A stretch of DNA of 64,000 bases from Phoronis australis (taxonomy: Eukaryota; Animalia; Phoronida): positions 294,812 through 358,811 of the forward strand of contig NMRA01000074.1 in assembly GCA_002633005.1 (NCBI GenBank), given 5' to 3'. Shown in pieces: positions 31,001 to 63,580 of this stretch. The position numbers were made by a program, and so were the translations under genes. The number at the start of each line of letters is the position of its first letter. Position 1 is the stretch's first letter. Below the pieces are notes generated by a model. That model saw only the letters and a program-made list of their open reading frames with translations, had not been told where the DNA came from and ran no database searches.

Positions 31001-34000
31001 AGTGACTGAACATTAGATGGGATAACAGGTGTTACACCCACCCTTGAACTAAAAATTGTGTGACAAAATTAAGTTTCAATATCCATTTTCCGACAACATA
31101 ACGACACGATGAAAAATAACCCAGGGGAAATGGCAGCAGTGTTCTCCTTTCTTGCACTCATTTTCTTTAGTGGTGTATTTCCCAGCTTTTTATACATCTT
31201 TGCAACCATGATTGCCATTGAGGTTCGGTGAGATAAACAATTCACACTAATATGTCCAACATTTCAAATGTTTGCGAAAGAATGAAACCATGTTTTGTCC
31301 CTGTCCACTCAGCCTATCCTCCACACCGGAACTAGAAACTGGGTCAACGGAGAGGTGCTTTTGTGCTCTCACAACCATTAAGAGTTATACACAGAAGGTT
31401 TCCAATTAAGTTATATTAAAGTTAATACTTCAGAAAAATGCACAATTGCCTCACCTAACTACGTCCTCAGCCAGAGAAGGATCCAACACTACATCGTGTA
31501 GAAGACCCTCCAACACACTATGATACTGGGCAGGACCTCGCATCAGCCCCGCCTCCCCATCACTACTGGTCGTCATGGCGCTGGTATCCCTGACAGCAGC
31601 CGGTACCAAGGGGATAACGAATGGCCGCAGTAAAGGTCTCAGACTGTAGGTAGATGATACCTTGACCATCACCTGGACTACGGCTGGCACTTTGCAAAGG
31701 TGCTTCAAAGACCTGATAAAACAAGAAAGAGAAAACAATCCAAAATTTCGTAAAATTTCATGACGCCACAATAACTGTTTACTTCACTGTATGCATGCAC
31801 TGATTTGAGTCCATGTGCTGGTATATGAAAGTAAGTTAACTGGCAGGTGAAGTTGAATAACCATCTACAAAACTTAGTGTAAAGGTTGACAGTTGGGACA
31901 AAATACATCAAGAAATTAGCGGAGGAAATACAAAGAACAGCCAAAAGACACACGCCTACACTTAAAAATGAAGCTCACTCAGGTGCATATCTGTGCGAAA
32001 CACCTTAATCTTGAAAAATCATTCTTTGAAAATCGGCAGTTCAACTCACTAGGTGGCGTTAGTACTACCACGGTACAACTTGTAGAAATGCAAGCAATCG
32101 GGTAAACATCTGGGATTGTTTGCACACAGACGTAAACACACTGACGTAACCACACTGACAACCTGCTTTCTACCTTTATTCATTAGCGCCACCTGGTGAA
32201 CATAAGTCTCCCATTTCACTTGCCGGTGCAAACCCCGCACTTCTAACACTTTGATTTAAACACAGGATACATCCACAATCATTCACTTTTGGCTACAAGA
32301 AATTATTACTCATTTTCACTTACAATACAAATCAAAAGTACTCAGACAAAATGACCCAGAATTCCGCAATCATGACAGCTTGGTGGATGTCAAATTCATC
32401 TTGAGATCAGTTTTCCCTCACTAATTAAGAGGAATAACAGGAAAGTTCTTAATAGCTATTGCCAATCATTTTTGCTGATAACAGACTTTGCAATAGATGA
32501 ACGGTAGTTTCTCTGCCTCTGCTGATTACTTTTGTCTTGTAACATAGATGATAATGAGGCCATCTCACGAGTCTGGCACACTTGCATTACCGTTTTGGCA
32601 GTTTGTCAATGGATTGTGTCTGATATACCAACAGCAAGCACATGATGGCCTCTTCTACCAGCTGCGGAGTTATGTACTGCAAGGAACACCATGAAATAGT
32701 AAACAGCAGTAGACAATGGTGACACAGGCTTCTTAAAGGTATACTCTAAAGGTCAAACACTCCACAAATCACGATTTGGGAATTAGTGACAAGTGAATCT
32801 TTGGCGACTAGCGTTACTTGATGGGCCTGCGAAGTGGTGTGGAGGCCTTTTCTCAGAAACCACATGAAAATGCATAATTTATTTTTCTACTTGAATATTC
32901 CTTGAATATGCATTGTGTATGATATAGTACACTTTTTATACAAACTTAAGGATTAAATTCATCTTGTAACGCTTTTTACAATACCTTGGTCAACGAAGCC
33001 ACGACCGTCTCAACAAACGATGACCTCAACTTGACCCTGTTCACCAGCTGACCGAGTATCATGTAGGTTGCAGCCTTGTAGTCAATGTTCTTGGACTTAA
33101 CTCCCCTGATCAAGTACGGCAACAACTGAGACAGCACGCTCTCGTTCATCTCGTTGGCGTACTCCAATGAGCCAACAATGGTCGATGCGTAGAACGACAT
33201 GAGGACACGCAAAGGGGAGCCATAGTGGCTCGGCGTGGTCCCGTGGACCTGACAGGAAATATCACAAATAATTATAACAAGAAAAGCTGGATTGGTTTTG
33301 CTAATAGTGCACGCCGTTTTGAAGCTTGCCCACAATTTTGAATGCAACAAGAACAAGACAGGTATGATATACGTAAGAAACACAATTTAGTAAAATTCCT
33401 CGTCACTAGGATGAAGAGCAGGTAGAACTCCCGGGTGAAAACTGGTCATTAATGGCCATACAGGGGAACAAAAATTTATCAAATTACACGCATTCGGTAT
33501 GCACTGCATCATCCACGTGGGCTTAGACTTGTATTGTAACCCCTATGCTTGATTGGGTATGACCAAGGGATGAGTACATGTCGAACTGACAAGACAACTG
33601 TTGTTTCGTTGTGAGTTTGTCATATGAAATTATCAAAATAAAGCAAGGTATGTTCTATCTCAGAATCTTACCTTCAGATACAGTTTTTACTACTACTAGA
33701 ATTGGAAGGGACAGACAGCAAATGCTATTGGCATTGCAACCGCATTCAATCTCCACCTTTTTAGTCTATACAGCCTGACCAACAGTTAATTAATTTGACA
33801 ATCAATACAATGATGTCAGGAAACCGTTTGGAGACATATCTGTTGACCTTGACCTTCACCTTGTCTGTAGTATCGTTAGCACCAACTGCCAGGTTTGAGC
33901 CCGGCTTGAAACAAAAGCCTTTTCATACTCAACTACAGGTCAGGTGATGTGATTGACATCAGGCATCAAAGAAGACTGATTTTTAATTAAACCACATCAA

Positions 34001-44900: not shown

Positions 44901-45109
44901 GAGGTTTTTTCAGAGATACCACACCGAGAAACTAGTCCTGAGACAGAGGCTGGGGCAGAATCATACCGAGCTGATGGTGTTACTGAAGAAGAGGTTCAAA
45001 ACAGACTTGAGGTGACGGAGAGGGTCAAGGAAATTGTTGACGAAAATGTGTCTAGAGCTCAGATGAAGCAGAAAAAGCACTACGTGCTGAAGAAGTCAAG
45101 GGAAGCAAA

Positions 45110-47052
45110 CAGCATTTTTTCACTCAGGGTCCAAATTTAGATTTTTTATGCTATGCACTCATATTGACAAAATTCCTTCACCTCTGGCAGATTTTTGTAT
45201 GATGATCTTGTTTTAGCATTGGTATTTATGAAATTTACATATTTTAAAGTACAAAAAAATGTTGATCATGGCCAGAGTAATCCTTAATATAGCTGAAAAT
45301 AGCCAGAAATCCACTGTTATATTGTTTCACTGAAATATTGCATGTTTTCAATACACATGGCATTTAATTAAATCAAACATTTAATTGAAATTTGTTTTTT
45401 CATGAACTTAACATGTATTTCTTGTTCTTCTTCAGGTGATTGCAGGTATCTGAATTGTCGAACACAATTTTCAGGCAAATTTACAAAATGTCAATGTTAT
45501 GCAAAACACTTAAATTTGAATATGCTCCTTCTCTTACAGCCATGGTTGAAAAAGAAAAGCATCACTAGTGTTTTGAACTGTTTTTTAATTGTTCATTGTA
45601 TATAGAATTTGATTCAGAAACTACATATTAGTACCAGATGTCCTAGTGATTGGATTCCTCAATCAAACAATATCACCGTCATCTAAGAAAAACTGTGTAT
45701 TCTCCGCAGCCATATCTCAATTCCATTAAATTTTTTCCTTTGATAAAACATAATTGATACTGCAGATTGGGAATCTTGAAGCTGTCTGTGGCCCACAAAA
45801 ATATTAGACCAAGCCCTGGATTTGAATTCATCATTTAGCAAAAAATTTTTCGTATTCTCCGTAGCCCCTGTATTCTCCGTAGCCCCCAATTTATAACTTT
45901 GATTTGTTTGTACATGGTTTGAAAAAACTTGTATGTAGGTGCATTTACTAAGAAAATAGACACAAGCAAACTCTCCAACACACGAAAAATTGCAATTTAT
46001 TTATTTAAGGGTGGTTAATGAGGCAAGTTTAGCCAAAAATTAACCTTTCAACTTTTTCTTTGTATTCTGTGGGTCAAAATTTGAAATCAACTGAAAATTC
46101 TCCTAATTTAATCAGGTGAAATTCAAAAATAACTAGTTGCCATAAACAACCACAATTGAATTACTCCACAGATTAAATGACGCAATGGCTGACACCAAAC
46201 AAGACAAGGAGCGAGAAAGGAAGAGAGAGCAAATGAGGAAGTACAGGGAAAATTTGCAGCAAAACAAAAGGAAATATGCAAGATATAAGCGAAAGGACAG
46301 AGAGCGGAAGAGGAGGGACTACAAGGAATTGGTAAAGACAGTAGACCGGTCAGTGTCACCTTAGTCTCTAAAGCAAGAAAAAAGGCTGGAAGAAAGAATC
46401 ATCAAAAACGGAAAGAAAAGAGCAAAGTCAGGAAAGACTGTGAGAGTGCAAAAGCCATAAAAAAGAGAGGCTGTGAAACGAACCCAAATGTGGAGACTTC
46501 GGATTAAGCTACAGAAAACAGCTGCCACCAAAGATAATGAAACACCTGAACAATCAACAAGCTACATGTCTCGTACAGCAGAATGGAGAGCCATCAAACA
46601 TGCTAGATCCAATCTTCCTAATACTCCAATCAAATGAGCACGAATTGTGGAGAAACTTGCAGGTTAACCTCAGTGTCAACAGCATTTACCAAGTAAAGGT
46701 GCTATTGTGACACCGTTCATTAAGAAGAAACTGGCTCTGGCAGAACATTTTACTCAGTCAATTGCTGATCACATTGAAAAAGTAAAGTTTGATGGGAATT
46801 CCCAAACTATGAAAAAACACTCCTACAAGTTGCTTAAATCTGTGGGGCAAGGAAAAAACAAAACCTATCATCGTCAAAAGCAGAGCCTGAAACGCATGCT
46901 GCAAAGTAATCTTCGCATCAAGAAGAAGTGCATTAGATGGTGGACCTTGGCTACGCACAAGAAATGTCGAGACGAGTTAAATCAAGCAATCAGTCAAAGT
47001 GTTTCGGAGTTTTTTCTACTACCTAGGTTAGTTGTTATGTACCAAACAAGAA
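45110..47052 (+). mobile_element. inserted DNA-transposon fragment with decayed basic ORF (46185-47052) resembling Sola transposase N-terminus
   Basis: KRTQMWRLR..NLPNTPIK*ARIVEKL..KKCRDELNQAISQSVSEFFL..YVPNKK; flanked by 89-bp duplication of host sequence. Confidence 0.5.
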
Positions 47053-47649
47053 AGGGTCAAGGAAATTGTTGACGAACATGTGTCTAGAGCTCAGATGAAG
47101 CAGAAAAAGCACTACGTGCTGAAGAAGTCAAGGGGAGCAAAGTGTTTTGACTTCTCTGTGGGGATGGAAGTATTGGTCATTAAACATGAGGAAACAAGGT
47201 CGGAAGGGGATGTGTCTTGACGACGAATGGAAGGGTCCGTACACCATTGCAGAGCTTGGGGAACAGTCTGCGACTTTGATCGATGGGAATGGTGTACGCA
47301 TGGCCAAAAGGGTACCTGTAGTCCAACTGAAGCCTTATTTGAAGTCATCAGAGCCACGTCAAAGTTCAAAAGACCCTGAAACCACCAACTCCTTTTGTGA
47401 CTCCAAGATTCCTGTGAATCCAGAGGTAGAAAGTCCTTCATCTTTTAACTGCTCTAAGTCATCTGATGCAACAAAAACCTGTTCCTCGTGTGATCTCTGG
47501 TCCAACTTCTGCTTCAGTGCCCACAAAATCAACAGGCGTGGGAAAGCCCCCTATGGATCCATCACACCTCTCCAAACCATCCAGCGCTACCAAGCCCACC
47601 CTCAGCACTCATACTCCATCAGGTGACAAACATCCCAAAACAGGTGATT

Positions 47650-48070
47650 CGGATTGCCCACTTCAGTCCGAAGGCCCAGTGTCTCCACTTATGTCTAATC
47701 TATCTCCATCTTGTGTTGCAGGTTCTACGACAGGTGATGCTGATGATCAACACCAGTCTCCAGCAAAGTCAGTATCTGCAAAACCTGCAGATGAACATTC
47801 AAATGTTTCAGCACTTAAGAACAGAAAAGTACAGCGAGCATGCAGCAAGGCTAATCCAACTTTCATATCTAACCCCTCCAACTTATCTGTACAGTCACCA
47901 TCTGAATGCCCAGTTCCTCCACTTAAGTCTAAACCATCTCTATCTAGTGTCGCAGATTCTGCTATTGGAGATGCTGATTGCCAATACCAGTCTCTAACAA
48001 AGTCAGTATCTGTAAAAATGCACATGAACATTCAACTGTTTCGGCGTGTAAGAGGAGGAAAGTAGAGCAA
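47650..48070 (+). repeat. internal ~170-bp duplication in Ginger linker
   Basis: SEGPVSPLMSNLSPSCVAGS..KSVSAK vs SECPVPPLKSKPSLSSVADS..KSVSVK. Confidence 0.75.
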
Positions 48071-49435: not shown

Positions 49436-49815
49436 ATTAGATACTTGTGATGTTGGATGTGTGATTGTGTGAGAAAATTAAGTTTGCTATTCTATGAATG
49501 GCAAAGTTTGGATGCAGTGGCGAATGCATTTCGCAGAGCAAAGATATTTCCCGACATTTGTGTTTCAGCCTTGACCACGGGAAAAACATTTGGTCGCTCC
49601 TGTCCTTGCATGCACTAGAACAAATGCATTTCTAGGCAGTTGCTTGTCTGAACAACATCACGGGATATTTGCAATACAAATAATATGAAGTAAGTTATTG
49701 AAGTTTGACTAAGGGTATTATGGCAAATGTATTTCAAGAGACACTCCGATGCGAGAAATTACGACATGCCCTCATTGTCCTTATCTTACCACAAAATAAG
49801 CCAACACTTGAAACA

Positions 49816-50118
49816 TGTAGTAAATGTCGACATCACTCTCAGCTGTGGCGTCTCTATGTTGTGATGTCCTTTTTCTTGCAATGTTGGTCTTGGCCTGGTG
49901 CGACACCTGACGCCAGAAGTGCCCAGCAGAGGTCACACTGTCATCACGTGACCAGTCACCTCTCAAGACCATGTGACAAGATCGTCTGGGCCTTCTGGAG
50001 TTTGCGGCCGTCCTGTGCGGACGTGATGTAAGTACACTCTAGACTAAACTCTTTCACCGTGTTCAACAGGCCGAACCTGCTTGACTGTAGCAGTAGCTGC
50101 AGCCATACTAATACAACA
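49816..50118 (+). repeat. 5' LTR of element 1 (303 bp)
   Basis: TGTAGTA...TACAACA followed by PBS; first 171 bp repeated at 54258. Confidence 0.88.
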
Positions 50119-50120
50119 TT

Positions 50121-50134
50121 TGGCATAGTTGGCA
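50121..50134 (+). promoter_or_regulatory. primer-binding site, tRNA-Ser-like
   Basis: TGGCATAGTTGGCA vs TGGCGTAGTCGGCA (two CpG-type transitions), 2 nt after LTR. Confidence 0.7.
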
Positions 50135-50458
50135 CCTATTTCCCGATGTTGGAGCAGCGTGCGTGTCTTTCTGTGGTGGCGGGAAATAAGTTTTCATAAC
50201 TTGTTTTCTCGTGGCCATTTTGACAGTCACGTGCGTCACTGCTTTTGCAGTGCCTGAGTTCAGGTTAACTAGAGTATAGGCTACCAAAGCTTTTGTGGTT
50301 AGTGTAGGAATTGTATATAGGTATTTAATATTGGTTAAAATTGTACATAGTATAGTTTGTTATTCATAATTTTGTACATTAGTTAAATTGTAGAACTTTT
50401 CTAGGAATTCTAGAATAGGTCACATGACCACGTTGTTGCAAAGCCGAGTGTGTTCAAT

Positions 50459-51906
50459 ATGTCTTTTCAAGACAGGGTTCCAATTAACTTGTCTTTCCCA
50501 AGAGTTATTTAAGCTCTCGGGCATGACAGAAGATATTGCCCAAACCCTTCTGGCTTTTCGGCAAAGTCAGCCGATAACCCAGAGTAATGTTAACCACATC
50601 CATTCCGGATGGAGGTTGATGAGGAGTGCTATTTCTGGCATTGATTTCACGCAATATGGTGATGTTCAGTCCCGAGATACCTCTCCTCTGGGTAGTCCTG
50701 TACGTACCCGTTTGCCCCAGGACTTAAATGGCATTGCCCAGGCCTGTGACGGGTTAAACAAATCACTTGTTACAGTGAGAAGTACTCCACTAACCAGGAT
50801 GCTTCTTCGTCTGTGTCTGCCCCAGGTTCTGGTAGCCAAACGGCTGGTCCATCTACCTACACTCGTCCCTATAGTTTAAGGCCAAATGCCCCAAGTTAGT
50901 GTTTCTAGCGGAAAAAGGCAAGTGGGACGATTTTTTTTGGAAATTCCAGGGCTTAGCCAAGGACAATTTATGGTCCGAAGACAAGTGCGTCTCTGAACTA
51001 GGAATGTGTTTGGACGATGTTGCCTTACATTTTTTCCTTAATTTCATGAGAACGAACCCAGACTCTGGTTTCGATGATGTGGTTGCACACATGTCAGAAC
51101 ATTTTTCATCAACTGACTGCACCCAGGTCTTGCACCTTGAATTCCAATACGCCGAGCAGAAGCCGGGAGAATCTACTGAGAACTGGGCATGTAGGTTGAA
51201 CAGCTTATTTTTTTAACAGCCTTCCCGAACCCTTCGGAGCAAGAAAAAGTAGAAACTTGTATTCCGTTTCTCCCTTGGGTTACGAGATAAGGTTGTAGGT
51301 ACGCAGGTGATGAACTCATTCCCTTTGTGCCTAGCTGAGGTAGAGTCTAAAGCTGCATGGTTCGCAACGACTCACCGATTCATGGCGAATCAAAACCGTC
51401 AGTCTGTTTGGTTCGAGGGCTTACCATCGCGTAATGACGAAGCTTCTATCAACCTACTTTCGCAGCACAAAAAACATGCACCTAAATTCTCTCCAATAGC
51501 GTCCTCTCATTCAAACTCTGCAGTTGAGTCTAGGCTGCATGCTTTAGAGTCTCAGATGGCTAAGGTCAATTCTGAAATAGGAGGTCTTAAAGAAGACAAT
51601 GCCCTGATACATCGAGAACTTAAGAGTATGTTCCAGACTATGAGTTCGAATTTTAGAGGCATTACCTCAGATTTGTCGAGGGTAATACAATTGCTGGATT
51701 CTAATCCAAAACCATCTAGATCCCCTCCACTACCTAAGTCCCCCCAAACTTCCCCACAGAGACCTTCAGTAATGTGTTTTAAGTGTGGTAAGTTTGGTCA
51801 CTACCAGTCTGTGTGCCGTAGCCCGCAGTCTGCTAGAATTCGTCACACATCCTTTGGTGAGAAGTCCGATGATTTAAACGAGTTGGGACTGGACGATCAG
51901 GTCTAA
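50459..51906 (+). pseudogene. gag: gag of element 1 (frameshifted): HhH-like N-terminus, capsid-like domain, coiled coil, CCHC knuckle
   Basis: WDDFFWKFQGLA..W..LGMCL..AL.F; AEQKPGESTENWACRL; CFKCGKFGHYQSVC. Confidence 0.85.
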
Positions 51907-51915
51907 CACCAGTCC
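51873..51915 (+). promoter_or_regulatory. -1 ribosomal frameshift signal (T TTA AAC + hairpin)
   Basis: slippery heptamer in gag phase, 6-nt spacer, stem GGACTGG/CCAGTCC; -1 frame open ~70 codons. Confidence 0.7.
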
Positions 51916-52151
51916 AATCTCGTGACGCCACCAGTAGGGTATCCTCAGACTGCCCCACTAAAAAATTCAGTCCCACGGATGGTTTATTAGGTTCATTAAA
52001 TAAAAACATCAAAAGCCTATCGACTAATCTCTTAGACTGTTTTAAGAAGGGAGTTTTCCACTTCTTCTCGAAGTATTTCTGTGCACGATGAGGTGATTGA
52101 ATTACCCATTACTGATACTGATGTGATTGTAAAGCTGTTTCTAGTACCCAG

Positions 52152-53350
52152 GTGGTTGCTAATTCTGAGTCATTAGATATCGTGCACACCCTGGTTCCGG
52201 ATTCCATTTCAGGGGGGTCAAAGGTGCCCCACAACCCTGTCGTTTTGCGAGATCCACCTCCTGAGTTTGTAGACGCTCCTATGGAAACTATTAATATTCA
52301 GGAGGCATTTTCTGGTAACACCCTACACCAACAGGCTGGCCGTCTGCTTCACTGGAGGCAGAAGGTCACCCTTCCACAAAAGGTGAGGGATGCTGGTTCG
52401 CCATACCCTCGGATGTCGTGTGTGGCAAAAGCCCGCCAGCCACCTGGCCTGCCTCTAAAGGGTCAACGTTCATCTGGGGCTTCGCCGTCCGCATCCAAAG
52501 CTAAATCAGGACAAGTCCCTGATTTGGCTATAAATGCCCACTTCCATTTGGATCGCTTGTCAGTATCCTTGGCTCAGCGTCATATCACTGAGACTAGGAT
52601 GCTGACGATCGACCAAATGCTCACTGCCCAGTTGCCACGGGTTTCTCAAAGACCTGTAAGGTTGGTCGGCGGGATTGCAGTTTTCTGCGATGTGGAAAAC
52701 TGGAAGTACGTTGAGGCTTCCCGTTTACCACATGGGTGGAAAGCTGTGGTGGGGAACCACCCCAATGGGTTGGAACAACGAATCCCGGTGTTTTAGAGCG
52801 TCTCCCCCAGCTACTAAAGGAGCCCTTTGGAGCTGGCTTAGGCGAGGTCGGTCTGGAGGCCCGGGATGACTTGGCCACCCAAAAAGAGGCTCTGGAAGAA
52901 ATGGTGCGGATCTTTGCGGAGGTTCGGGCCAACTCCCCCAACCTCAAAAACAAAGTCGTGGTGATCCACATTCGTAGCTCCTCCGACAATCCACGCTTCT
53001 TTGTCTTTGACCTTCTGAAGCGCCACTGTGGTGCAGACTTGGGTTTGCATCTCCATTGTTTTGGAGGTGCGCCCGAGGATGTACTCCGGTGGACGGGGTT
53101 CTTTAGAAACTGCCACTTCGGCTTCGCCGGTCATGTGAACCAGTTTCTAAAGTACCAAAACAAGGGGTTACAAGAGGTTCCGCTGAATCGACTCCTCCTG
53201 GAGTCTGATTTACCGCACCTCGGCAAGCCCCAATGGCGCCCCAATACCTGGGGGGAAGTGGCTGTGGAGGTGGCGCAGCGTTCTCGTCGTTCCCTGCGTG
53301 ACATCCTGGCTGCTTCCACCAGGAATGCCAGGCGGCTTTACCATCTCTAA
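52152..53350 (+). pseudogene. TatD-family nuclease ORF of element 1 (domain ~52524-53350; one frameshift ~52764)
   Basis: NAHFHLD, VGNHP, GLGEVGLE, VVIHIR, HLHCFGG, FGFAG, PLNRLLLESDLPHL, EVAVEVA..STRNARRLY. Confidence 0.9.
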
Positions 53351-53627
53351 CAAAATTGTTAGAAGTGGTTTAGCATCCCGGTGTGCCTGGGTCATAACCT
53401 ATGCCCCAGGTTTTCTCCTAGTCCCTTGGGTAACTGCCCGTTATTGTAAACTCTGAGGCTGACTACGGTCTCTGGATTTGTGCCTTACCCTTGGTCCTAG
53501 AAGAATTGTGGTGTCCATTTAAGTAGTATAAGTAATTAAGTAGCATACTGGTCCATTATTTTTATATAGTAGAGTTTATTTGTTAAAACTATATAGTATA
53601 TTTTTGTTATAAGTTATGTTTCCATAC

Positions 53628-53631
<4 letters not shown>

Positions 53632-53662
<31 letters not shown>
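53632..53662. repeat. (TA)n microsatellite
   Basis: seen directly. Confidence 0.95.
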
Positions 53663-53666
<4 letters not shown>

Positions 53667-54243
53667 TATTTATATATTCAAGACTATACTTTCTACAGCA
53701 TTACGTATTAGTTGATGCTATATAGTTTATTAACTTAAGTTTTCCATAGTCTACGTATGTTATGAAAGACTATATCATTTTACATTTCACTATATCACTA
53801 CTAAAGCATTACTGAATACTCAACTTATGGCCAGTATGCTTTTCATTGTTCAGTTTTTTCTTAACTTATTAAAAAAAAATGTATATATACTCTTACCAGG
53901 TCATCACCAACAAACGGAGTGTTGTCATAATTTCCATGCCCCATGGTACTTGTGTTAGTGGGGCATATTTTTTTTTTTGTCTTTCAATCATCATGTTCCA
54001 ATATTCCGTTGGATATATGCTATGACTGAGTCTCTTTAGTTTTTGTGTTTTTTTTGGTAGGGGGGAGAATAGTTATATTTAGTAATAATCAGAAATTGGT
54101 ACTTTACTAGAGTCATTCCACATCACTTTAGTTATGGGGTCTAAGTTCTTGTTACTGATTTTTTTAGCCAAGGGTTTATGTTTAGATGTTGGGAATGACG
54201 TTCGCCATTTGCTATAAGGCTTAGGGCTCCATTCCTTTTCTTT

Positions 54244-54428
54244 AGGGAAGGGAGGAATGTAGTAAATGTCGACGTCAGTCTCAGCTGTGGCGCCTCTATG
54301 TTGTGATGTCCTTTTCATTGCAATGTTGGTCTTGGCTTGGTGCGACACCTGACACCAGAAGTGCCCAGCAGAGGTCACACTGCCATCACGTGACCAGTCA
54401 CCTCTCAAGACCATGTAACAAGATCGTC
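54244..54428 (+). repeat. PPT (agggaagggaggaa) and truncated 3' LTR of element 1 (54258-54428)
   Basis: about 9 differences in 171 bp vs 5' LTR (hand count). Confidence 0.9.
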
Positions 54429-54430
54429 AT

Positions 54431-56044
54431 AGGCGTACTGCTTATACTCATAGAAATGAGGAAGGGATAGACAGTAGGGACTGGATAACCTTAAGCACGT
54501 GGGGTAGACTGGAGGATGGTAAGGTACCTTATGGTAATTTAAGGGGTCTGGAAAGTCCAGTAGGGTCACCTGTTCAGCGGGGTAGGATTCGGTCTTGTGA
54601 AGAAGAAAGAAGTCGTCTCTCAGACGATGATAGCTCTATGGGAATTTCACCCGGAAGGAGGGGGCTTCGGTTAAGATACTCGCGAGGAGGTGAGGGGGCC
54701 CGTAGGAAGAGTCCTGAGGTGAAATTTGCCAATCGTTTTGTAGTCTCGCCAAAACGGGAGGATAATAGAGGTATTGATTATAGAGTGAGACGTAGTTCAC
54801 CCAGAGATTACTCACCTAGGAGAGAATATTACAGGAGTCCGCCGAGAAGGTGGCGTTATGTAATGGATAGGGACGAGTATGATGGGGGACATAATCCGTG
54901 GTGGTATAGGCATACTCGGGAGGAGGGCCTAGATAGGGTGGAGCGTAGAGAGTACGATAGGGATTATGATGAGGATAGATATTCTCCGCGACGCCGTTAC
55001 TATGAGCCACGGGATGACTTTAGAGAGAGAAGGGGAGGAAATAGAGGCTATAATGCCAGGGGATATAGTACACAGGTACCACCAAAAAACATAAAGTTTG
55101 ATGGGACTGGGAATTATAGAATTTTCAAGCAACTGTTTAGGAGGTGGACCGGAGCTAGAAGAATGACAGCGGGTGAGGCTTTAGACTCTTTTATGTATTG
55201 TCTAGAAGGGAAACCTTTGGATTTTGTGGGGGAACTGGGAGAACAAGTAACCCTGAATGAAGTTCTGGAGGTGTTAGACAGTTATTACGGGGATGAAGGG
55301 AGAGCATCAACAGCTAGTCAAATATTAGGAACAGCTACTCAGAGGACTGGAGAATCCATTAGGGAATGGGCCATGAGAGTAATGACTCTGTCTAGACAAG
55401 CGTTTGGGGAATTTGGTTCGGAAGAGTTAGTACATCGGGAAGCAATAACTCAGTTTTGTGTAGGTGCATTAGATGCAGAGGCAGGGGAATTTGTGCTCTT
55501 GAAGAAACCCCGGGTATTGGAGGAAGCCAAATCTATGATGGAGGATAAGCATAGGACACGGGAGAGAGTAAGACAGAAACCTGGTCGGGGGGCTAATGTG
55601 CATTCAGCTTACTTAGTGAAGGAAGATTTGCCCTTCAGGGAACAGGTTGAGGATAATTCTTATCGGATAGCTTCGGTAACAGAGGCTAAATCCAGCTCTG
55701 AGAAAATGTTAGCTCAGTTAATTAAGGCCGTAACTGAACAGACTCAGGCGATACAAAAACTTGTGCTGAAATCTCCGGGGTCGTTCAGGGGGGATAAAGA
55801 TAAGCCGTTGGTTCAGAATGGACAGAATCAAAGTAGATGGGGGTCTAAGAAAGCTTCTTCAGGAAATCAGCATAGAACAAATGAGGGGGATCGGAAGAGA
55901 GATACCTCGAGAGAGTCGAGGAAATGTTACAGGTGCCAAAAGGAGGGTCATTTTGCACGGAACTGTCCTGATAAGATTAAGAAGGAAAATCTACCGGAAA
56001 ACTCCAGAGGGACCACTGTAGGAGCCGCGCAGAAGTCCCAGTAG
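54431..56044 (+). CDS. gag: gag of element 2 (5'-truncated; RS-rich region, capsid, CCHC)
   Basis: frame open from the junction; PKNIKFDGTGNY, CLEGK.LDF, QRTGESIREWA.RV, QFCVG, CYRCQKEGHFARNC. Confidence 0.9.
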   Translation, partial: RRTAYTHRNEEGIDSRDWITLSTWGRLEDGKVPYGNLRGLESPVGSPVQRGRIRSCEEERSRLSDDDSSMGISPGRRGLRLRYSRGGEGARRKSPEVKFANRFVVSPKREDNRGIDYRVRRSSPRDYSPRREYYRSPPRRWRYVMDRDEYDGGHNPWWYRHTREEGLDRVERREYDRDYDEDRYSPRRRYYEPRDDFRERRGGNRGYNARGYSTQVPPKNIKFDGTGNYRIFKQLFRRWTGARRMTAGEALDSFMYCLEGKPLDFVGELGEQVTLNEVLEVLDSYYGDEGRASTASQILGTATQRTGESIREWAMRVMTLSRQAFGEFGSEELVHREAITQFCVGALDAEAGEFVLLKKPRVLEEAKSMMEDKHRTRERVRQKPGRGANVHSAYLVKEDLPFREQVEDNSYRIASVTEAKSSSEKMLAQLIKAVTEQTQAIQKLVLKSPGSFRGDKDKPLVQNGQNQSRWGSKKASSGNQHRTNEGDRKRDTSRESRKCYRCQKEGHFARNCPDKIKKENLPENSRGTTVGAAQKSQ

Positions 56045-56768
56045 AATCAGAAGGCTCAGAATCAGATCAGGAACTTGAAATGGATCAGAGTAGGCAATCT
56101 GATATACCTGAAACGTTTTTGATGTCAGTAGTGCAGCATTGTAAGGACATACAGCAGGGTACTGAAACGGTTCTAGATAATGACACAGTATGTGAGAACT
56201 TAGCCAGTTGTGTTGTAACCGACATGGGTAGTAGGCGTGGGTGTAATCGGTTTGCTACTCCGTTATTGGTTAACGGTGAATTTATACAGGCTATTGTAGA
56301 CTCAGGAGCTCAAACCACGGCAATATCTCGAAAATGGGCTACTAAGTTAAAGTTAGATAACTTAACATCAGGGAAAGTAGTGAAGTTGCAGACAGCTAAA
56401 GCTGGGGAGGCAATGAATGCCGAGGTATTAGATAAGGTGGTAAGGATAACTTTGGGCGAACGAGACTATGAAGCTGAATTGTGGATAATGGATCTGTCTG
56501 AGGATATGCTGCTCGGACAGGATTTCATGAGTGAATATTCTATGTATTTAGATGGGGAATCTCATGAAATGGTAGTTAAGGAAATGGGGGAGCGAATTCC
56601 AGTTTCCTGTTATAACCCTTATTGTCAAGTAGGACCAAGGGTGGCACTGTTAAGGGCCATGGATGAAGTAACCATAGAGCCAAGAACAGGACGAAATATT
56701 GTAACCAAAGCTTCATGTAGGTTACGGGAATTTATAGTTGAAGACGAACTATGTAATCAGTTACAGGT
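55996..56768 (+). CDS. pol: pol N-terminus / aspartic protease, reached by -1 frameshift at G GAA AAC
   Basis: -1 frame open from 55996 into AIVDSGAQ...MLLGQDF; GGGAC/GTCCC hairpin follows slippery site. Confidence 0.85.
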
Positions 56769-56866
56769 NAGTTAAAGTTAGATAACTTACCATCAGGGAA
56801 AGTAGTAAAGTTGCAGACAGCTAAAGCTGGGGAGGCAATAAATGCTGAGGTATTAGATAAGGTGGT

Positions 56867-57514
56867 GCAGCAGATGTATGACAAGGCAGTGCAGGAATTG
56901 ACGGGATATGAAGCAGCCCGATTAAAAAGCATGTTAATTGAGTTCAGGGATGTGTTTGCTGAAACAGAATTTGATTTAGGGACATTTTCAGCGGTAGAAC
57001 ACTGCATTGAGTTGGAGGCTGGAACGCGTCCAGTGAAACAAAAGATGCGGAGAACTCCATTAGGCTTTGAGGCTGAAGAGTGGAAACAATTGCAGGCCAT
57101 GTTAAATGCAGGGATCATAGAGCTATCCTTGTCACCATGGGCCAGTAATCCAGTTTTAATACGTAAGGCAGATAGGAAATGCCGTTATTGTGTAGATTTC
57201 CGGGCATTGAATGATAAAACTGTGAAAGATTCATGGCCTTTACCTTTAGTATCTGATTGTTTTGATTTACTTCAGGGTAATCAGTTCTTTTCGAAGTTGG
57301 ATGCGAATAGTGCGTATTATCAGATTCCAATTAAGGAACAGGATAGAGTAAAGACCGCATTTATAACTAGGTATGGTCTGTTTCAATTCCGGAGGATGGC
57401 AATGGGATTGAGTGGGGCACCATCAAGTTATTCACGGGCTATCGGTCTAGTCTTGAAAGGCATAAATTGGAATACGGCATTAGCATTCTTAGATGATATT
57501 GTGGTACTTGGGAG
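56867..57514 (+). CDS. pol: reverse transcriptase (partial, runs into gap 57515-57847)
   Basis: SPWASNPVLI, RYCVDFRALN, FSKLDANSAYYQI, KTAFIT, AFLDD. Confidence 0.95.
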
Positions 57515-57847
57515 NNNNNNNNNNNNNNNNNNNNNNNNNNNNNNNNNNNNNNNNNNNNNNNNNNNNNNNNNNNNNNNNNNNNNNNNNNNNNNNNNNNNNN
57601 NNNNNNNNNNNNNNNNNNNNNNNNNNNNNNNNNNNNNNNNNNNNNNNNNNNNNNNNNNNNNNNNNNNNNNNNNNNNNNNNNNNNNNNNNNNNNNNNNNNN
57701 NNNNNNNNNNNNNNNNNNNNNNNNNNNNNNNNNNNNNNNNNNNNNNNNNNNNNNNNNNNNNNNNNNNNNNNNNNNNNNNNNNNNNNNNNNNNNNNNNNNN
57801 NNNNNNNNNNNNNNNNNNNNNNNNNNNNNNNNNNNNNNNNNNNNNNN

Positions 57848-58358
57848 AAGAAGGCAAAGCTCTGGGAAGATCAAGCCAAGGCCATGGGGAAGACTGTCGA
57901 GCACCTTCAAGGGTGGTTCAAGTCCCTCCGAGACACTCACACCCGTCTCCACAAGAAGAAGAGCGGTGACGGCGCCCCGGAACTGACAGAGAGGGAGCAG
58001 TGGGTGAAGGCAAACTTCAGCTTCCTCAAGAGTGTGGTCCGCCATCATGCTGAACCCGTCAACAGTGTAAGTATAACAAATATTAATATTAATATTTATT
58101 TATATTAATTTTATTGTGATTACAAAGCATTGAATGTGCCTTGTATTTTTGCCTTGTATTTTAACAATCAACTGTCATAATTGCAGGTGAAGGTGACCAT
58201 TGCAGCACACAGCGGGGACCTCGAGGCTGCCTGTGCAGACATCGTGGTTGATGACGAGAGCACGCCCTCCACTGTCCCCTCCTCATCCTCACAGCGCAAG
58301 GGCAAGCGTGGCCAGGACGATGACCAGTTGCTGCAGTCACTCCAGAAGAGGGTGCTCC
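57848..58358 (+). mobile_element. foreign fragment: spliced MADF/Myb-like gene, probably Harbinger ORF1
   Basis: KAKLWEDQAKAMGKTVEHLQGWFKSLRDTHTRL..KSGDG..LTEREQWV..FSFL; intron 58067-58186; GC-rich codons unlike pol. Confidence 0.65.
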
Positions 58359-59924
58359 AATCAGGGAGGAATTAGTGCAGCAAGACAATCAGACCTAACA
58401 GACCAACAAGGGGGAACTATGTTGGAATTGGTGGAGAAACAACGTAATGATCCTGACTTAAGATTTATAATATCCTGGCTTGACGAGGGGGAGTTTCCTA
58501 GTCAGGAGGAATTGTTTAGGTCTTCTGAGAAGGCTAAAGCTTATTGGTTAAATAAGGAAAGTTTTAGCTTTCTAGAAGATGGTATTTTAGGAATGCGGGA
58601 TCATAAGAGCTCTCAAAACAAGTTGATTGTAGTTCCACGGGAGTTGGAGGAAGAAATCATGAGATTGAACCATGATTTGCCTTTGGCGGGACACCAGGAA
58701 ATGGAACGAACACGATCTAAAATTAGGCTAAAGTATTATTGGAGGGGAATGAGAGAGCGCATTCGAAAGTATGTTGAAGGTTGCATGGTGTGTAACCAAA
58801 ACAAGGGAAGAGTTCGAAAAGCTCGTACTCCAATGGTAAAATACCAAGCCGGAGCACCAATGGAAAGAGTTCACATAGACTTTTTGGGACCATTACCTAG
58901 AACGTCAAGGAGGAATGAGCATGTATTAGTGGCGGTAGACCAGTTCACTAAGTGGGTAGAATGCATTCCTTTATCAGACCAAACGGCGGAAACCACCGCT
59001 ACGGCAATGGTCGATAATATTTTTTCAAGGTATGGGTGTCCGCTTCAGCTGTTCTCTGATAGGGGCTCAAATTTTCAGAGTGCAGTGTTTAAGGAAGAAT
59101 GTAAGTTCCTCAGAATTCATCAGACACATACAACTGCCTATAGGGCAAATGGACAGGCGGAAAGGGTGAATAGGTCAATGATGAATGCAGTTCGCTGTTT
59201 TGTGGGGGAATTTCAGTGTGATTGGGATTTGTATGTACCAATGATTGCAGGAGCACTGAGAGCATGTGTGAATCGTTCGACAGGTTTAACGCCTAATATG
59301 ATGGTGTTGGGTAGAGAAGTAAATACTCCAGCGGAAGTGGCTTTCAGGGTAAGTCCGGGGGTAGGAGTCTTGGAGCCGAAAAGGTATGCTGATGAGTTGG
59401 TGGATAAGATGACACGAGCTCATGAACTTGCTCGGGAAAATTTAGGTACAGCTCAGCTTAGGGCTAAAATTGATTACGACATCAGGGTTAATCAGTTTGG
59501 TTATGCAGAGGGAGATGTTGTAAGAGTGTTTCGGGATGCTGTACCACAGGGAATGAGTAGGAAACTGTATCCACCATGGTCAGAACCGGCGATAATAGTA
59601 GCTAAGATATCGGATCGCTTATTTAAGGTAAGGTTTAAGCGATCGGTTGGCACGTATAACCATGATAAGCTGAAGAGATGTAAGGATAGGGTATGTCCTG
59701 AGTGGATTCAACGGTTAAAGGGTGATCCACTGCTATTAGCTGCTGAAAAGGTCAAAGCATTGTCTACGGGGGTACAATTGTATTGCATATGTAATCAACC
59801 TGATGATGGCTCTACAATGGTACAATGTGATGACTGTAAACAATGGTTTCATGCATTGTGTTTTGGGTTGAACCAAGAGCAGGCTATGGCTCTTCCTGAA
59901 TTCAAATGTTCATTATGTGAATGA
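58359..59924 (+). CDS. pol: integrase (HHCC-DDE) with C-terminal PHD finger
   Basis: HDLPLAGH..CMVC, HIDFLGP, SDRGSNF, NGQAERVN; YCICNQPDD..VQCDDCKQWFHALC..FKCSLC. Confidence 0.93.
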   Translation, partial: NQGGISAARQSDLTDQQGGTMLELVEKQRNDPDLRFIISWLDEGEFPSQEELFRSSEKAKAYWLNKESFSFLEDGILGMRDHKSSQNKLIVVPRELEEEIMRLNHDLPLAGHQEMERTRSKIRLKYYWRGMRERIRKYVEGCMVCNQNKGRVRKARTPMVKYQAGAPMERVHIDFLGPLPRTSRRNEHVLVAVDQFTKWVECIPLSDQTAETTATAMVDNIFSRYGCPLQLFSDRGSNFQSAVFKEECKFLRIHQTHTTAYRANGQAERVNRSMMNAVRCFVGEFQCDWDLYVPMIAGALRACVNRSTGLTPNMMVLGREVNTPAEVAFRVSPGVGVLEPKRYADELVDKMTRAHELARENLGTAQLRAKIDYDIRVNQFGYAEGDVVRVFRDAVPQGMSRKLYPPWSEPAIIVAKISDRLFKVRFKRSVGTYNHDKLKRCKDRVCPEWIQRLKGDPLLLAAEKVKALSTGVQLYCICNQPDDGSTMVQCDDCKQWFHALCFGLNQEQAMALPEFKCSLCE

Positions 59925-60163
59925 TTCACGGTGAGAACGGGATGAGTTGGGAAGAGGGATACTACTCGATGAACATATTTAGGTAAACGCCTGGGAAAGG
60001 TGTGGCTAAAACTCTTCGTCTATAAATTCAGCTTTCTCTGATTATTAAGCATGCTTGTTCACCGGAGGAGATGTTTTCTACAAATACACGAATAAGCGAA
60101 AAGCAGAAGACATTCCTTTCATCAAAATGACTGTTAAGCTGCTATTCTATTGGTTATTGTAGA

Positions 60164-61332
60164 ATGTCCAATGCACGCAGAGAGCAGTTGTGGCGCGGGG
60201 TAGCGGACAGCTTGATGGAGCTGCTGAAGGGTGACGCGGGTGCTTCAGGTAGTCAGCGCGAGGAGACGCCGCGACGGGGAAGGTCGCCCACTCGCCGGAG
60301 GAGCAGGTCACCCCGGGAGAGAGGATCCTCCAGAAGATCGAGGGAGAGATCGGGCCGAAGGCAACAACGGGGAGGTCGGCGCTGGGAGAAAACCCAGAAG
60401 AAGGACCGCAGCCAGGGGGGACCGTCGGGGAGTCATATGAAAGATCCGGCGAGGGGATGTCCTCACTGCCTTCAGGACCCCAGTGACATGGCGAAACATG
60501 TCCTGGATTGCCATTTACCTCGAGGGATCCTGCTGGGAACAGGACCGGGGGACCAGGAGCAGTCCCGGAAAAGAATGTGGTTCCTCCACGACGTGGCCAA
60601 GGTTGTGGATGAGAAGCCCAAAGATTTGATGAGACGGGTCGAAGGGTGCCCGTTCTTATCTAACCTGGAAACGCCAATGGAAGAGGAAGTTCAGCTGATC
60701 TGCCAGCACGTGGGTTTGGAGAGGCCGAGCAGTCTATCTTTGGGGAACGTGCAGAGCTTGCCTCTTCTACTGCACCCAGAGGTTTTGGAGACACTTCTGC
60801 GGTCATTCACACGGTCCCAGCTCATTAGGGTGGCTGGGAGAAGGTGGCCAGCAGGGAAATGCATCCCATACAGGTGGTTAGGAGAGTGTATGGCGGAGCA
60901 GCCCATGGAGACGTCCTACGCTGAGGTAGTTCGTGGGAAGCCGGCGTCAAAGGGTGCGTCGCGGATGAGTTCGGCAACGAGCTCATCAGGGGTTCGTCCC
61001 CTTTCCCAAGGGAAGGCTACCGGGAGCGGGGAAGCGACGGCGGTGTCCAAGGAATCTTCAGGGGCCTCTTCGTCGAGTAACTTGTCAGGGACGACGGAGA
61101 GGGGATCAAGGGAATCGCCTCATCAAAGGTTGATGAAGACCATGCGAAGTTCCCAAGGGGGTGAGTTGAACTTTCCTGATAGTAGGGATGATAGTGGTAA
61201 AGTTCTGAAATCATCTTTCTTACAGGTGGAACCTCAGGTACCAGTAGAGGTAGCGGATGCACACTTTCACTTAGATAGGGTGATTCAAAGGCATCGGATG
61301 TCATCAGAGGAAAGTGCTCTAGATGTGTATAG
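60164..61332 (+). CDS. ORF3 N-part: RS-rich, C2H2-like finger, Ser-rich linker, start of TatD domain
   Basis: CPHC-x10-H-x4-H; VADAHFHLDR; cut by N at 61333. Confidence 0.8.
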
Positions 61333-61333
61333 N

Positions 61334-62032
61334 GTTAATTAAGGCCGTAACTGAACAGACTCAGGCGATACAAAAACTTGTGCTGAAATCTCCGGGGTCG
61401 TTCAGGGGGATAAAGATAAGCCGTTGGTTCAGAATGGACAGAATCAAAGTAGATGGTCTAAGAAAGCTTCTTCAGGAAATCAGCTTAGAACAAATGAGGG
61501 TGATCGGAAGAGAGATACCTCGAGAGAGTCGAGGAAATGTTACAGGTGTCAAAAGGAGGGTCATTTTGCACGGAACTGTCCTGATAAGATGAAGAAGGAA
61601 AATCTACCGGAAAACTCCAGAGGGACCACTGTAGGAGCCGCGCAGAAGTCCCAGTAGAATCGGAAGGCTCAGAATCAGATCAAGAATTCCAGGTGTGGAA
61701 ATATGTCATGACTTTCAACGAGGGGTACCATTAGAATCCTGCCCTGTGGAGGCTGTTCAAAATGCACAAAACATCATCGGGAATGGGCAAAATTCTATAG
61801 TACAGTGGATGATGTGGTTCCTTTAGGTGCTAAGGTGAAAACAACTACGGAGGATCCAGTGGATATAATCGCATCTAGTTCTTTATGGAACAGGGATATG
61901 GAAGATAGTGAAACCTGGGGTATACAAGTAGTAACTAGGCGACAGGAGAAAATAGGTCCCGGGGGAGAGGTTGCCTTATCTAATCAGGGAGGAATTAGTG
62001 CAGCAAGACAATCAGACCGGACAGACCAATAA
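61334..62032 (+). other. misplaced pieces of element 2: duplicate gag end (61334-~61683) and RNaseH-integrase linker (~61680-62040)
   Basis: copy of 55717-56072; SRIPGVEIC..LPCGGCSKC..W..VDDVVPL, overlapping 58359-58417 at its end. Confidence 0.8.
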
Positions 62033-62405
62033 GGGGGAAATTCTATGGGAAATAGCTAGGGATTGTTTGAATAAAGCTACACCCATTCAATTGCATTCTT
62101 TCCGTGGGGGTCCTCAAGTGGTGGAAAAATGGTTAAAGACATTTCCTAACACCTACTTCTCAGTTTCAGGAGTTGGACTAGGTCACATTAGGGGGGACCG
62201 AGCTCGCGGGATACGAGCTATTCCGTCAAAGCGACTGTTGGTGGAAACGGATGCACCTTATAATCATCCAAGTGGCACTGGAATGCATCAGTCCCATTCC
62301 GTAGTAATAGGGGAATGGTGCAAGCAAATAGCGGAAGTCCGGGGAGTTAGCCTGGGTGAAATTTGCAGACTGTCGCGGGATAATCTAGCGTCCTTTATTC
62401 ATTAA
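62033..62405 (+). CDS. ORF3 C-part: C-terminal half of TatD domain
   Basis: IQLHSFRGG, W..FPNTYFSVSG, IPSKRLLVETDAPY, IAEVRGVS..SRDN. Confidence 0.85.
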
Positions 62406-62685
62406 GAAAGGGAGAAAAAGTAAGAGTAAGGGATTATGTATGGCATGGGGAGAATCACTGCTAGTAGTATTGAATTTGGATGTTAATGTCTTTATTCAAG
62501 TATTGTTTCCTGTGCTTTTTCATCAGACTCGGGGAGTCAAAGGGCTCTTTTCAGGCGATCCATAAGGGTATAATTGGGAAAAGTATGGGTATTTAGTCGT
62601 GATTCTTGTTGTTTGTCCATACATGTGTTACAGGTATGGGATGGCACCACTCCACAAGAGAAGGGGATGCATCATACCTTACATA

Positions 62686-63059
62686 CTCTTACTATGTTTC
62701 AGAACCAGCCAAGAGGACCCAGTAGAGGGTAACTGGGAAGGGGTGGCTGGGGGAACTTATACGGGATTTGAATAGGGATGGATTGGAGTATAACTGGGTA
62801 AAATTAAACATCGGAACTGCAATTTGGACTATGTTGATATTGGGTATATTAGATAGTCTGACTCTTATATCNCTCTTACTATGTTTCAGAACCAGCCAAG
62901 AGGACCCAGTAGAGGGTAACTGGGAAGGGGTGGCTGGGGGAACTTATAGGGGATTTGAATAGGGATGGCTCGGAGTACAATTGGGTAAAATTAAATATCG
63001 GAACTGCAATTTGGACTATGGTGATATTGGGTATATTAGATAGTCTGACTCTTATATCA
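62686..63059. repeat. ~186-bp duplication across single-N join (62872)
   Basis: near-identical adjacent copies. Confidence 0.85.
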
Positions 63060-63231
63060 TGGCTGAGTAAGAGAATCTTTTATGGGATGATTGGCTAGAT
63101 TATCTAGGGAAAATGTCATAGGGATAGTCCGGCTGAGGTTAATTTTTAATAAGTTTTAAACAACTGGGTTGGTACCGCAATTCCGATTAACATTACCAGG
63201 GAAAGCTCCAAAAAATAGAATGGGGAGGAAA

Positions 63232-63580
63232 TGTAGTGAGCCAGTGCGTATGTTACGTGAGGTTTAATTGGATAGTCAGGTTCGCGGGCTTCTCTGCCGT
63301 CTTGGCTGGGATTGGAGAATAGATGGAACCTGCTGGGTAACCTGATGTAACGATGACGTCACGACCTCGTGGTTCACTCGTCCTTCGCACTTGAAACTCG
63401 AGAGAGACAAGACGAACTCTGAAAAGACTCCAACGCATATCTACTATCGACTCTAGAGACTTTTCCATAACCAGTTAGGTAAGCTGTCTTATAGTTCTAG
63501 TGTATACTTGGGAACCCAATGGTCGTCCGCCTAAGCATAAAACCGGCTTGTTGTCGTACTCACCCAATCATTCCACTTCA
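63232..63580 (+). repeat. 3' LTR of element 2
   Basis: follows PPT agaatggggaggaaa; TGTAGTG...CACTTCA; no second copy to confirm the right end. Confidence 0.65.

Follow-up and report, generated by a model that had tools for sequence, protein, structure and literature searches.

Introduction

In Ty3/Gypsy retrotransposons the -1 frameshift from gag to pol is signalled by a slippery heptamer of the form X XXY YYZ, a spacer and a stem at the end of gag. The gag-onc retroviruses are helper-dependent; they carry a cargo in the place of pol, joined to gag as an in-frame fusion, and obtain their enzymes in trans. The role of extra open reading frames (ORFs) in long terminal repeat (LTR) retrotransposons is largely unknown. 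Here we describe a decayed Ty3/Gypsy-type LTR retrotransposon derivative at positions 49816-54428 of a 64,000-nucleotide stretch of the phoronid Phoronis australis (assembly GCA_002633005.1, contig NMRA01000074.1, positions 294,812 to 358,811 of the forward strand; hereafter the window). It consists of a 5' LTR, a primer-binding site (PBS), gag, TatD, a polypurine tract (PPT) and a 3' LTR. We propose, with belief and doubt about evenly balanced, that it belongs to a multi-copy pol-less Ty3/Gypsy family whose active members would make a Gag-TatD fusion through a -1 frameshift. The signal at the gag end has the same build as in the canonical gag-pol shift, but the product would be an accessory nuclease and not Pol; as in the gag-onc retroviruses, a cargo lies where pol was and enzymes would be supplied in trans, although theirs is fused in frame and not recoded.

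Bdelloid Juno and Vesta LTR retrotransposons carry non-env third ORFs (ORF3s) that include a DEDDy exonuclease and a GDSL esterase (PMC5408684). Shared with the TatD ORF are the character of an enzymatic third ORF after pol, the intact catalytic residues and the presence of a nuclease among the enzymes; the fold here is a TatD TIM barrel and theirs DEDDy, and the bdelloid ORFs are described as spliced and not fed by a gag frameshift. The non-autonomous TelKA2n is, like the present element, a derivative without most of pol that retains ORF3. The TR-GAG elements of plants (PMC8704663) also have LTRs and gag, lack pol and are moved in trans, as we suppose for this element; a TR-GAG has a single gag ORF, whereas the element adds a second conserved ORF after the -1 signal and so falls outside that group. 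Human and E. coli TatD proteins have 3' exonuclease and apurinic/apyrimidinic endonuclease activity (PMC10085689), and TATDN2 breaks down R-loop RNA (PMC10711561). The HxH motif and metal ligands of the element's TatD are those of the class II proteins (E. coli YcfH, human TATDN2 and TATDN3), whereas the predicted nucleases of the family described here have a long N-terminal extension and form a separate clade. A literature search found no paper on a TatD-bearing retrotransposon, although supplements, Repbase/Dfam and subscription papers could hold one, and TatD is not mentioned in the available main text of PMC5408684, PMC13524379 or PMC12440569. The TatD-keeping, pol-less element adds to the accessory-ORF-bearing, non-autonomous LTR elements.

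Structure of the element

The features of the element are as follows.

49816..50118, + strand: 5' LTR, about 303 bp, TGTAG...TACAACA, with sibling contigs that have differing flanks before 49816
50121..50134, + strand: PBS-like tract, starting TGG, 2 nt past the 5' LTR
50424..51906, + strand: gag, broken into 50424-50879, 50875-51216 and 51253-51906, with a C-terminal CCHC knuckle
51873..51879, + strand: slippery heptamer T TTA AAC, in phase, the only in-phase heptamer of the last gag piece
51886..51915, + strand: stem-loop with 7-bp arms (51886-51892 and 51909-51915), 6 nt past the heptamer
51873..52532, + strand: -1 phase linker, open over 51873-52088, with four stops within 52089-52121, and open from 52122
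52202..52283, + strand: possible weak splice acceptor (ending at 52212) and in-phase ATG (52281), a rival route to TatD
52533..53350, + strand: TatD domain of the HxH class; the metal ligands are kept and the frame is broken once, near 52760
54244..54257, + strand: PPT, directly before the 3' LTR
54258..54428, + strand: truncated 3' LTR of 171 bp, differing from the 5' LTR at 9 positions

The right edge of the 5' LTR is marked by a sibling contig (n=1) that departs from the element directly past TACAACA. The PBS-like tract is a candidate that may be Ser-like in its tRNA. An earlier sequence-only reading of this DNA had described a gap-free LTR-PBS-gag-TatD-PPT-LTR unit with LTRs about 5% diverged and with no protease (PR), reverse transcriptase (RT), RNase H (RH) or integrase (IN). 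The order of parts holds and the unit contains zero Ns, but the 3' LTR covers only 171 of about 303 bp; over these the direct repeat (49816/54258) differs by 5.3%, in keeping with the figure given. The 3' LTR lacks its final ~130 bp and at 54429 runs into the interior of the gag of a second element. Because it abuts this foreign gag and its right end is missing, no target-site duplication is readable. Sibling contigs of the neighbouring element carry different sequence before 54430, so that the junction at 54429 arose either by deletion or in assembly.

In the gag pieces, Pfam matches to PNMA and zf-CCHC are weak and under the curated cut-offs. The middle piece is 33% identical (E 6.5e-16) to the Ty3-type gag of a metagenome locus (L012), which itself matches Retrotrans_gag and Ty3_capsid and is followed by PR-RT-RH-IN. 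The absence of pol was borne out: eight pol pieces of two relatives, used as queries, found no PR, RT, RH or IN similarity in the element at E<=0.05, and a Pfam scan found no pol domain. Without a PR-RT-RH-IN pol, the element is not an autonomous Ty3/Gypsy element.

Recoding signal and linker

The heptamer, 6-nt spacer and GGACTGG/CCAGTCC stem named in the sequence-only reading were confirmed, and the stem is present in the minimum free energy fold. A heptamer alone occurred within the last 15 gag codons in 0.05 of resamples; of 20000 resamples, a fraction of 0.00035 had both a slippery site and a 7-bp stem at this end of gag, which is beyond chance. A heptamer, a spacer within 5-9 nt and a downstream structure together make up a credible site of -1 recoding.

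Past the slippery site the -1 frame stays open for 72 codons (chance of at least 70, 0.048), close to the ~70 reported before. The roughly two further indels formerly thought to lead from there to TatD are not required, as the N-terminal ORF of TatD (52122-52793) already lies in the phase of the -1 frame; four stops intervene instead. These begin at 52089, 52098, 52113 and 52119, all inside 33 nt, so that 125 of the 136 codons ahead of the first in-phase ATG are stop-free in the TatD phase, and clustering of this kind over the 136 codons arose in 0.028 of resamples. The first in-phase ATG lies within PMET, a recurrent internal motif of ORF3 linkers that was found in the N-terminal parts of 13 of 53 relatives, against 1.8 in shuffles. 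The linker also holds LLHWR, a stub of an ORF3 domain described below, which was spotted post hoc and matched in 3 of 1000 shuffles. PMET mostly lies downstream of the conserved domain in relatives and precedes the LLHWR stub in the element; because the order is reversed, either PMET or LLHWR may have arisen by chance.

Sibling copies

Sibling contigs from four DNA runs (X1 to X4; 2 samples, 1 study, possibly the source of the assembly) were aligned along 49500-56500, and we considered the best-supported 40 of 646 differences, 12 of 81 indels and 24 of 308 loose ends. Contig depth is not equal to copy number. Contigs identical to this copy had depths of 44-47 in X2, against 644-797 for contigs ~90-94% alike; the corresponding depths for identical and diverged contigs were 7.6 and 92-136 in X4, 8-15 and 51-52 in X3, and 7-8 and 16-28 in X1. 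Contigs 90-94% alike are therefore 2-18x deeper than those of this copy along gag, junction and TatD, depending on the run. Together with three X1 contigs that have differing flanks before 49816, this indicates that several copies of the element family are present.

The sequence-only reading had left it to other copies to show whether the lack of pol is a one-off deletion. Deep sibling contigs tile the gag-TatD junction: 51772-52036 is gapless at depth 644, 52130-52369 is covered at depth 92 versus 7.6 (X4), and a single deep contig (depth 485) crosses two joints that bracket the stop patch of the linker. None of the 24 loose ends lies in the junction. The 12 indels stand at or beside this copy's own gag and TatD breaks, or form phase-neutral sets. 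The pol-less layout thus looks family-wide and not a one-off deletion, and family-wide loss appears the likelier, although no full-length second copy was seen.

Eighteen of the 40 differences (51812-53264; one beside the TatD break omitted) were labelled by their effect on coding, a small and selected set. Synonymous changes made up two of five at the gag end, three of four in the -1 phase of the 72 codons after the slippery site, and six of seven in TatD.

TatD domain and its relatives

The domain matches TatD (PF01026) at E 7.6e-19, and its nearest solved structure is YcfH (1yix, E 2e-39). The metal ligands H-x-H, E, H, H and D are kept, which places it in class II, while the Asp preceding HxH is Asn in the element's copy. 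Each ligand column is kept in 40/40 family rows, save one H column at 39/40. We predict a class II TatD nuclease with intact nuclease residues.

An HMMER search with the C-terminal part of TatD gave 1057 matches at E<=0.001, of which the best 150 are mostly 30-44% identical. Among these 150 are 62 long relatives (420-1085 aa) with TatD at the C-terminus; all 62 match the TatD model, 3 also match zf-CCHC and 1 a C2H2 model. In a quick tree limited to matches of at least 230 aa (110/150), the element's TatD groups with the long ORF3-type proteins and apart from the bacterial-type side (SH-aLRT, an approximate likelihood ratio test, 95), with 9 bacterial-type rows and 6 others falling outside the retrotransposon-borne clade. 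Word-index protein searches with the linker and N-terminal part of TatD, gag's C-terminal portion and the middle of gag gave no match at E<=0.001, which is weak evidence. A scan of viral contigs returned 11 ordinary TatD loci of 27-38% identity, and the DNA motif occurred at 0 loci in viral contigs.

Two zinc-knuckle proteins with a zf-CCHC-TatD arrangement (P0114 and P0128) were considered as Gag-TatD fusions and rejected, as their place in the tree is on the cellular-type side and neither gives a capsid match. Two others (P0046 and P0135), likewise free of capsid matches, carry the ORF3 domain in addition to a knuckle. P0114 and P0128 carry a cellular-type TatD with the knuckles in a long N-terminal tail and are possible kin of the donor of the retrotransposon TatD. 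One ORF3-type TatD is labelled Sedimenticola sp. (P0006, NCBI MES9884279.1) and lies on a 4-kb contig of a metagenome-assembled genome; it probably stems from a retrotransposon of the host whose DNA was binned together with that of a symbiont.

TatD as a third ORF in pol-bearing relatives

Directly after the element stands a second one, with these features.

54429..63240, + strand: neighbouring pol-bearing Gypsy element without a 5' LTR; gag, PR, RT, N gap, IN-PHD, ORF3, PPT and 3' LTR
60164 onward, with TatD to 62405, + strand: the neighbour's ORF3, a Cys/His domain and TatD
near 63232, + strand: the neighbour's 3' LTR, starting TGTAGT, after the PPT

In the neighbour, gag and pol overlap at G GAA AAC, followed after 6 nt by a GGGAC/GTCCC stem, with pol in the -1 frame; since this overlap is built alike, the element's own signal is most simply an inherited gag-pol site. 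The neighbour's LTR start (TGTAGT) and PPT end are like those of the element, and its lineage is therefore a candidate helper type. It is partly mis-assembled, gag and PR pieces being duplicated at single Ns (56769 and 61333). Between its N gap and integrase lies an unrelated, apparently intron-containing fragment (57848-58365), the result of a further insertion or of faulty scaffolding.

In metagenome contigs a scan for the motif picked out 13 loci, three of the TatD-ORF3 family (L012, L022 and L024) and ten in unrelated genes; all 19 motif loci in prokaryote genomes were rejected as unrelated genes. Both metagenome loci with enough upstream sequence have integrase-PHD directly before the TatD ORF, and in L012 a complete gag-PR-RT-RH-IN lies ahead of it. 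The earlier proposal that TatD had replaced pol was not upheld, because the neighbour and these two informative loci hold TatD as a third ORF behind pol or integrase-PHD. We regard TatD as the established third ORF of a Gypsy lineage whose complete members have it after pol or integrase-PHD, behind a splice-acceptor-like site, and appear to express it by splicing. Genomic context was read for three elements, from which we infer the same for the whole protein family. The element itself would then be a pol-deletion derivative of the TatD-ORF3 Gypsy lineage, and its TatD no new capture.

Judged with a hidden Markov model (HMM), a Cys/His domain of ~150 aa lies ahead of TatD in 48 of 53 long relatives as well as in the neighbour, L012, L022 and L024; the element gave no HMM match to it in any frame and retains at most the LLHWR stub. 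The domain (L012:7450-7935; ~60460-60820 of the window) combines Cys/His and helical parts, with the pattern CP..C..H..H..P ... NSP..LHWR. Its predicted model folds confidently (predicted local distance difference test, pLDDT, 92.7). Pfam gave no match, Foldseek against viral structures and PDB nothing at E<=0.001, and the best VIA and Atlas results were a Z of 3.3 and 0.87 with low recognition, which do not by themselves show a new fold.

Proposed expression of TatD and alternatives

Under our proposal, pol and the greater part of the ORF3 N-terminal domain would have been lost by deletion, which would have put the ORF3 linker and TatD in the phase formerly held by pol. At the gag end, shifting by a few percent of ribosomes would bring TatD into the particle at a Pol-like ratio, while RT and integrase would likely be borrowed from a complete relative. 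In the particle TatD might act, a suggestion of low confidence, as a two-metal 3' nuclease on reverse-transcription intermediates; candidate substrates are the RNA of RNA:DNA hybrids and single-stranded or abasic cDNA. The wider scenario, in which a catalytically intact accessory nuclease, hitherto undescribed and made from a spliced third ORF across a widespread Gypsy lineage, was rewired in a parasitic pol-less branch under the gag-pol frameshift and packaged as Gag-TatD at Pol stoichiometry, is tentative, doubt slightly outweighing belief.

Several results weigh against a frameshifted fusion. A continuous -1 ORF from the slippery site to TatD is present in none of the copies examined; the two sibling joints supply no letters from which a phase could be read, and the first stop just precedes the first joint. 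In the later linker neither of two listed differences is synonymous, giving 3/6 over the whole linker. The stem is only modestly stable, and its fold energy taken by itself is nothing unusual (z -0.66 over 81 nt and -1.77 over 46 nt). By Pfam, none of the 62 long relatives has a capsid domain fused to TatD, and none a pol domain. An autonomous partner sharing the LTR or PBS was not encountered, and the long branch of this TatD, described below, also counts against the fusion.

It is unlikely, if far from negligible, that the pol-less family makes TatD separately from a spliced subgenomic RNA, the slippery site being a gag-pol leftover that yields a short transframe peptide only. A pyrimidine tract and AG lie within 7 nt before the ORF3 ATG in 3/3 pol-bearing cases, splicing is typical for ORF3s in LTR retrotransposons (PMC5408684), and TelKA2n, from the same source, is a precedent for keeping ORF3 without most of pol. 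The element has its own candidate acceptor and in-phase ATG, but this acceptor is weaker and lies 69 nt from an ATG that is inside the internal PMET motif, and both the largely stop-free codons upstream and the mostly synonymous differences right after the slippery site argue for translation through the linker. Improbable, in our judgement, is that TatD is a passenger of a family spread on gag and cis-signals alone, as in TR-GAG, with TatD and the signal persisting by inertia. Gag-only elements can transpose (PMC8704663), the ORF3 N-terminal domain has been lost, and the element's TatD sits on a long branch (1.22), so that selection may be relaxed; its largely synonymous sibling differences, the complete set of ligands and the sibling TatD indels, which are phase-neutral or at this copy's break, point the other way. 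Slightly less probable still is that siblings carry pol at one of the joints of unknown letters, the present copy being an isolated deletion or a product of assembly. None of the listed contigs runs the full length of the element, the loose ends considered are 24 of 308, and the adjoining assembly is visibly faulty, but the depth across the junction and both joints, the lack of loose ends there among those 24, and an element free of Ns and of any pol remnant argue against it.

Surroundings in the window

Upstream of the element, 45018-48065 holds a remnant like an integrase C-terminus, in which a 92-bp piece is duplicated and a long open frame is rich in Ser/Pro; Pfam gave no match. A ~2.5-kb tandem duplication (26359-30695, 98-100% identical) surrounds the N gap 28816-28939 and is probably an assembly duplication. 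Exon-like ORFs at 11184-11579 and 32976-33386 (- strand) resemble HEATR1/UTP10. The element lies upstream of these ORFs and is possibly intronic.

Significance

That the element shed pol yet kept TatD with its ligands suggests that the nuclease helps it. If the fusion is true, a recoding signal would have been repurposed for packaging an accessory enzyme, and the element would be a satellite retroelement with a nuclease, instead of RT and integrase, as its second enzyme. The finding also reveals a conserved 150-residue domain without a Pfam or structural match, and it accounts for many long, unannotated TatD proteins, which are probably cargo of retrotransposons and not cellular genes.

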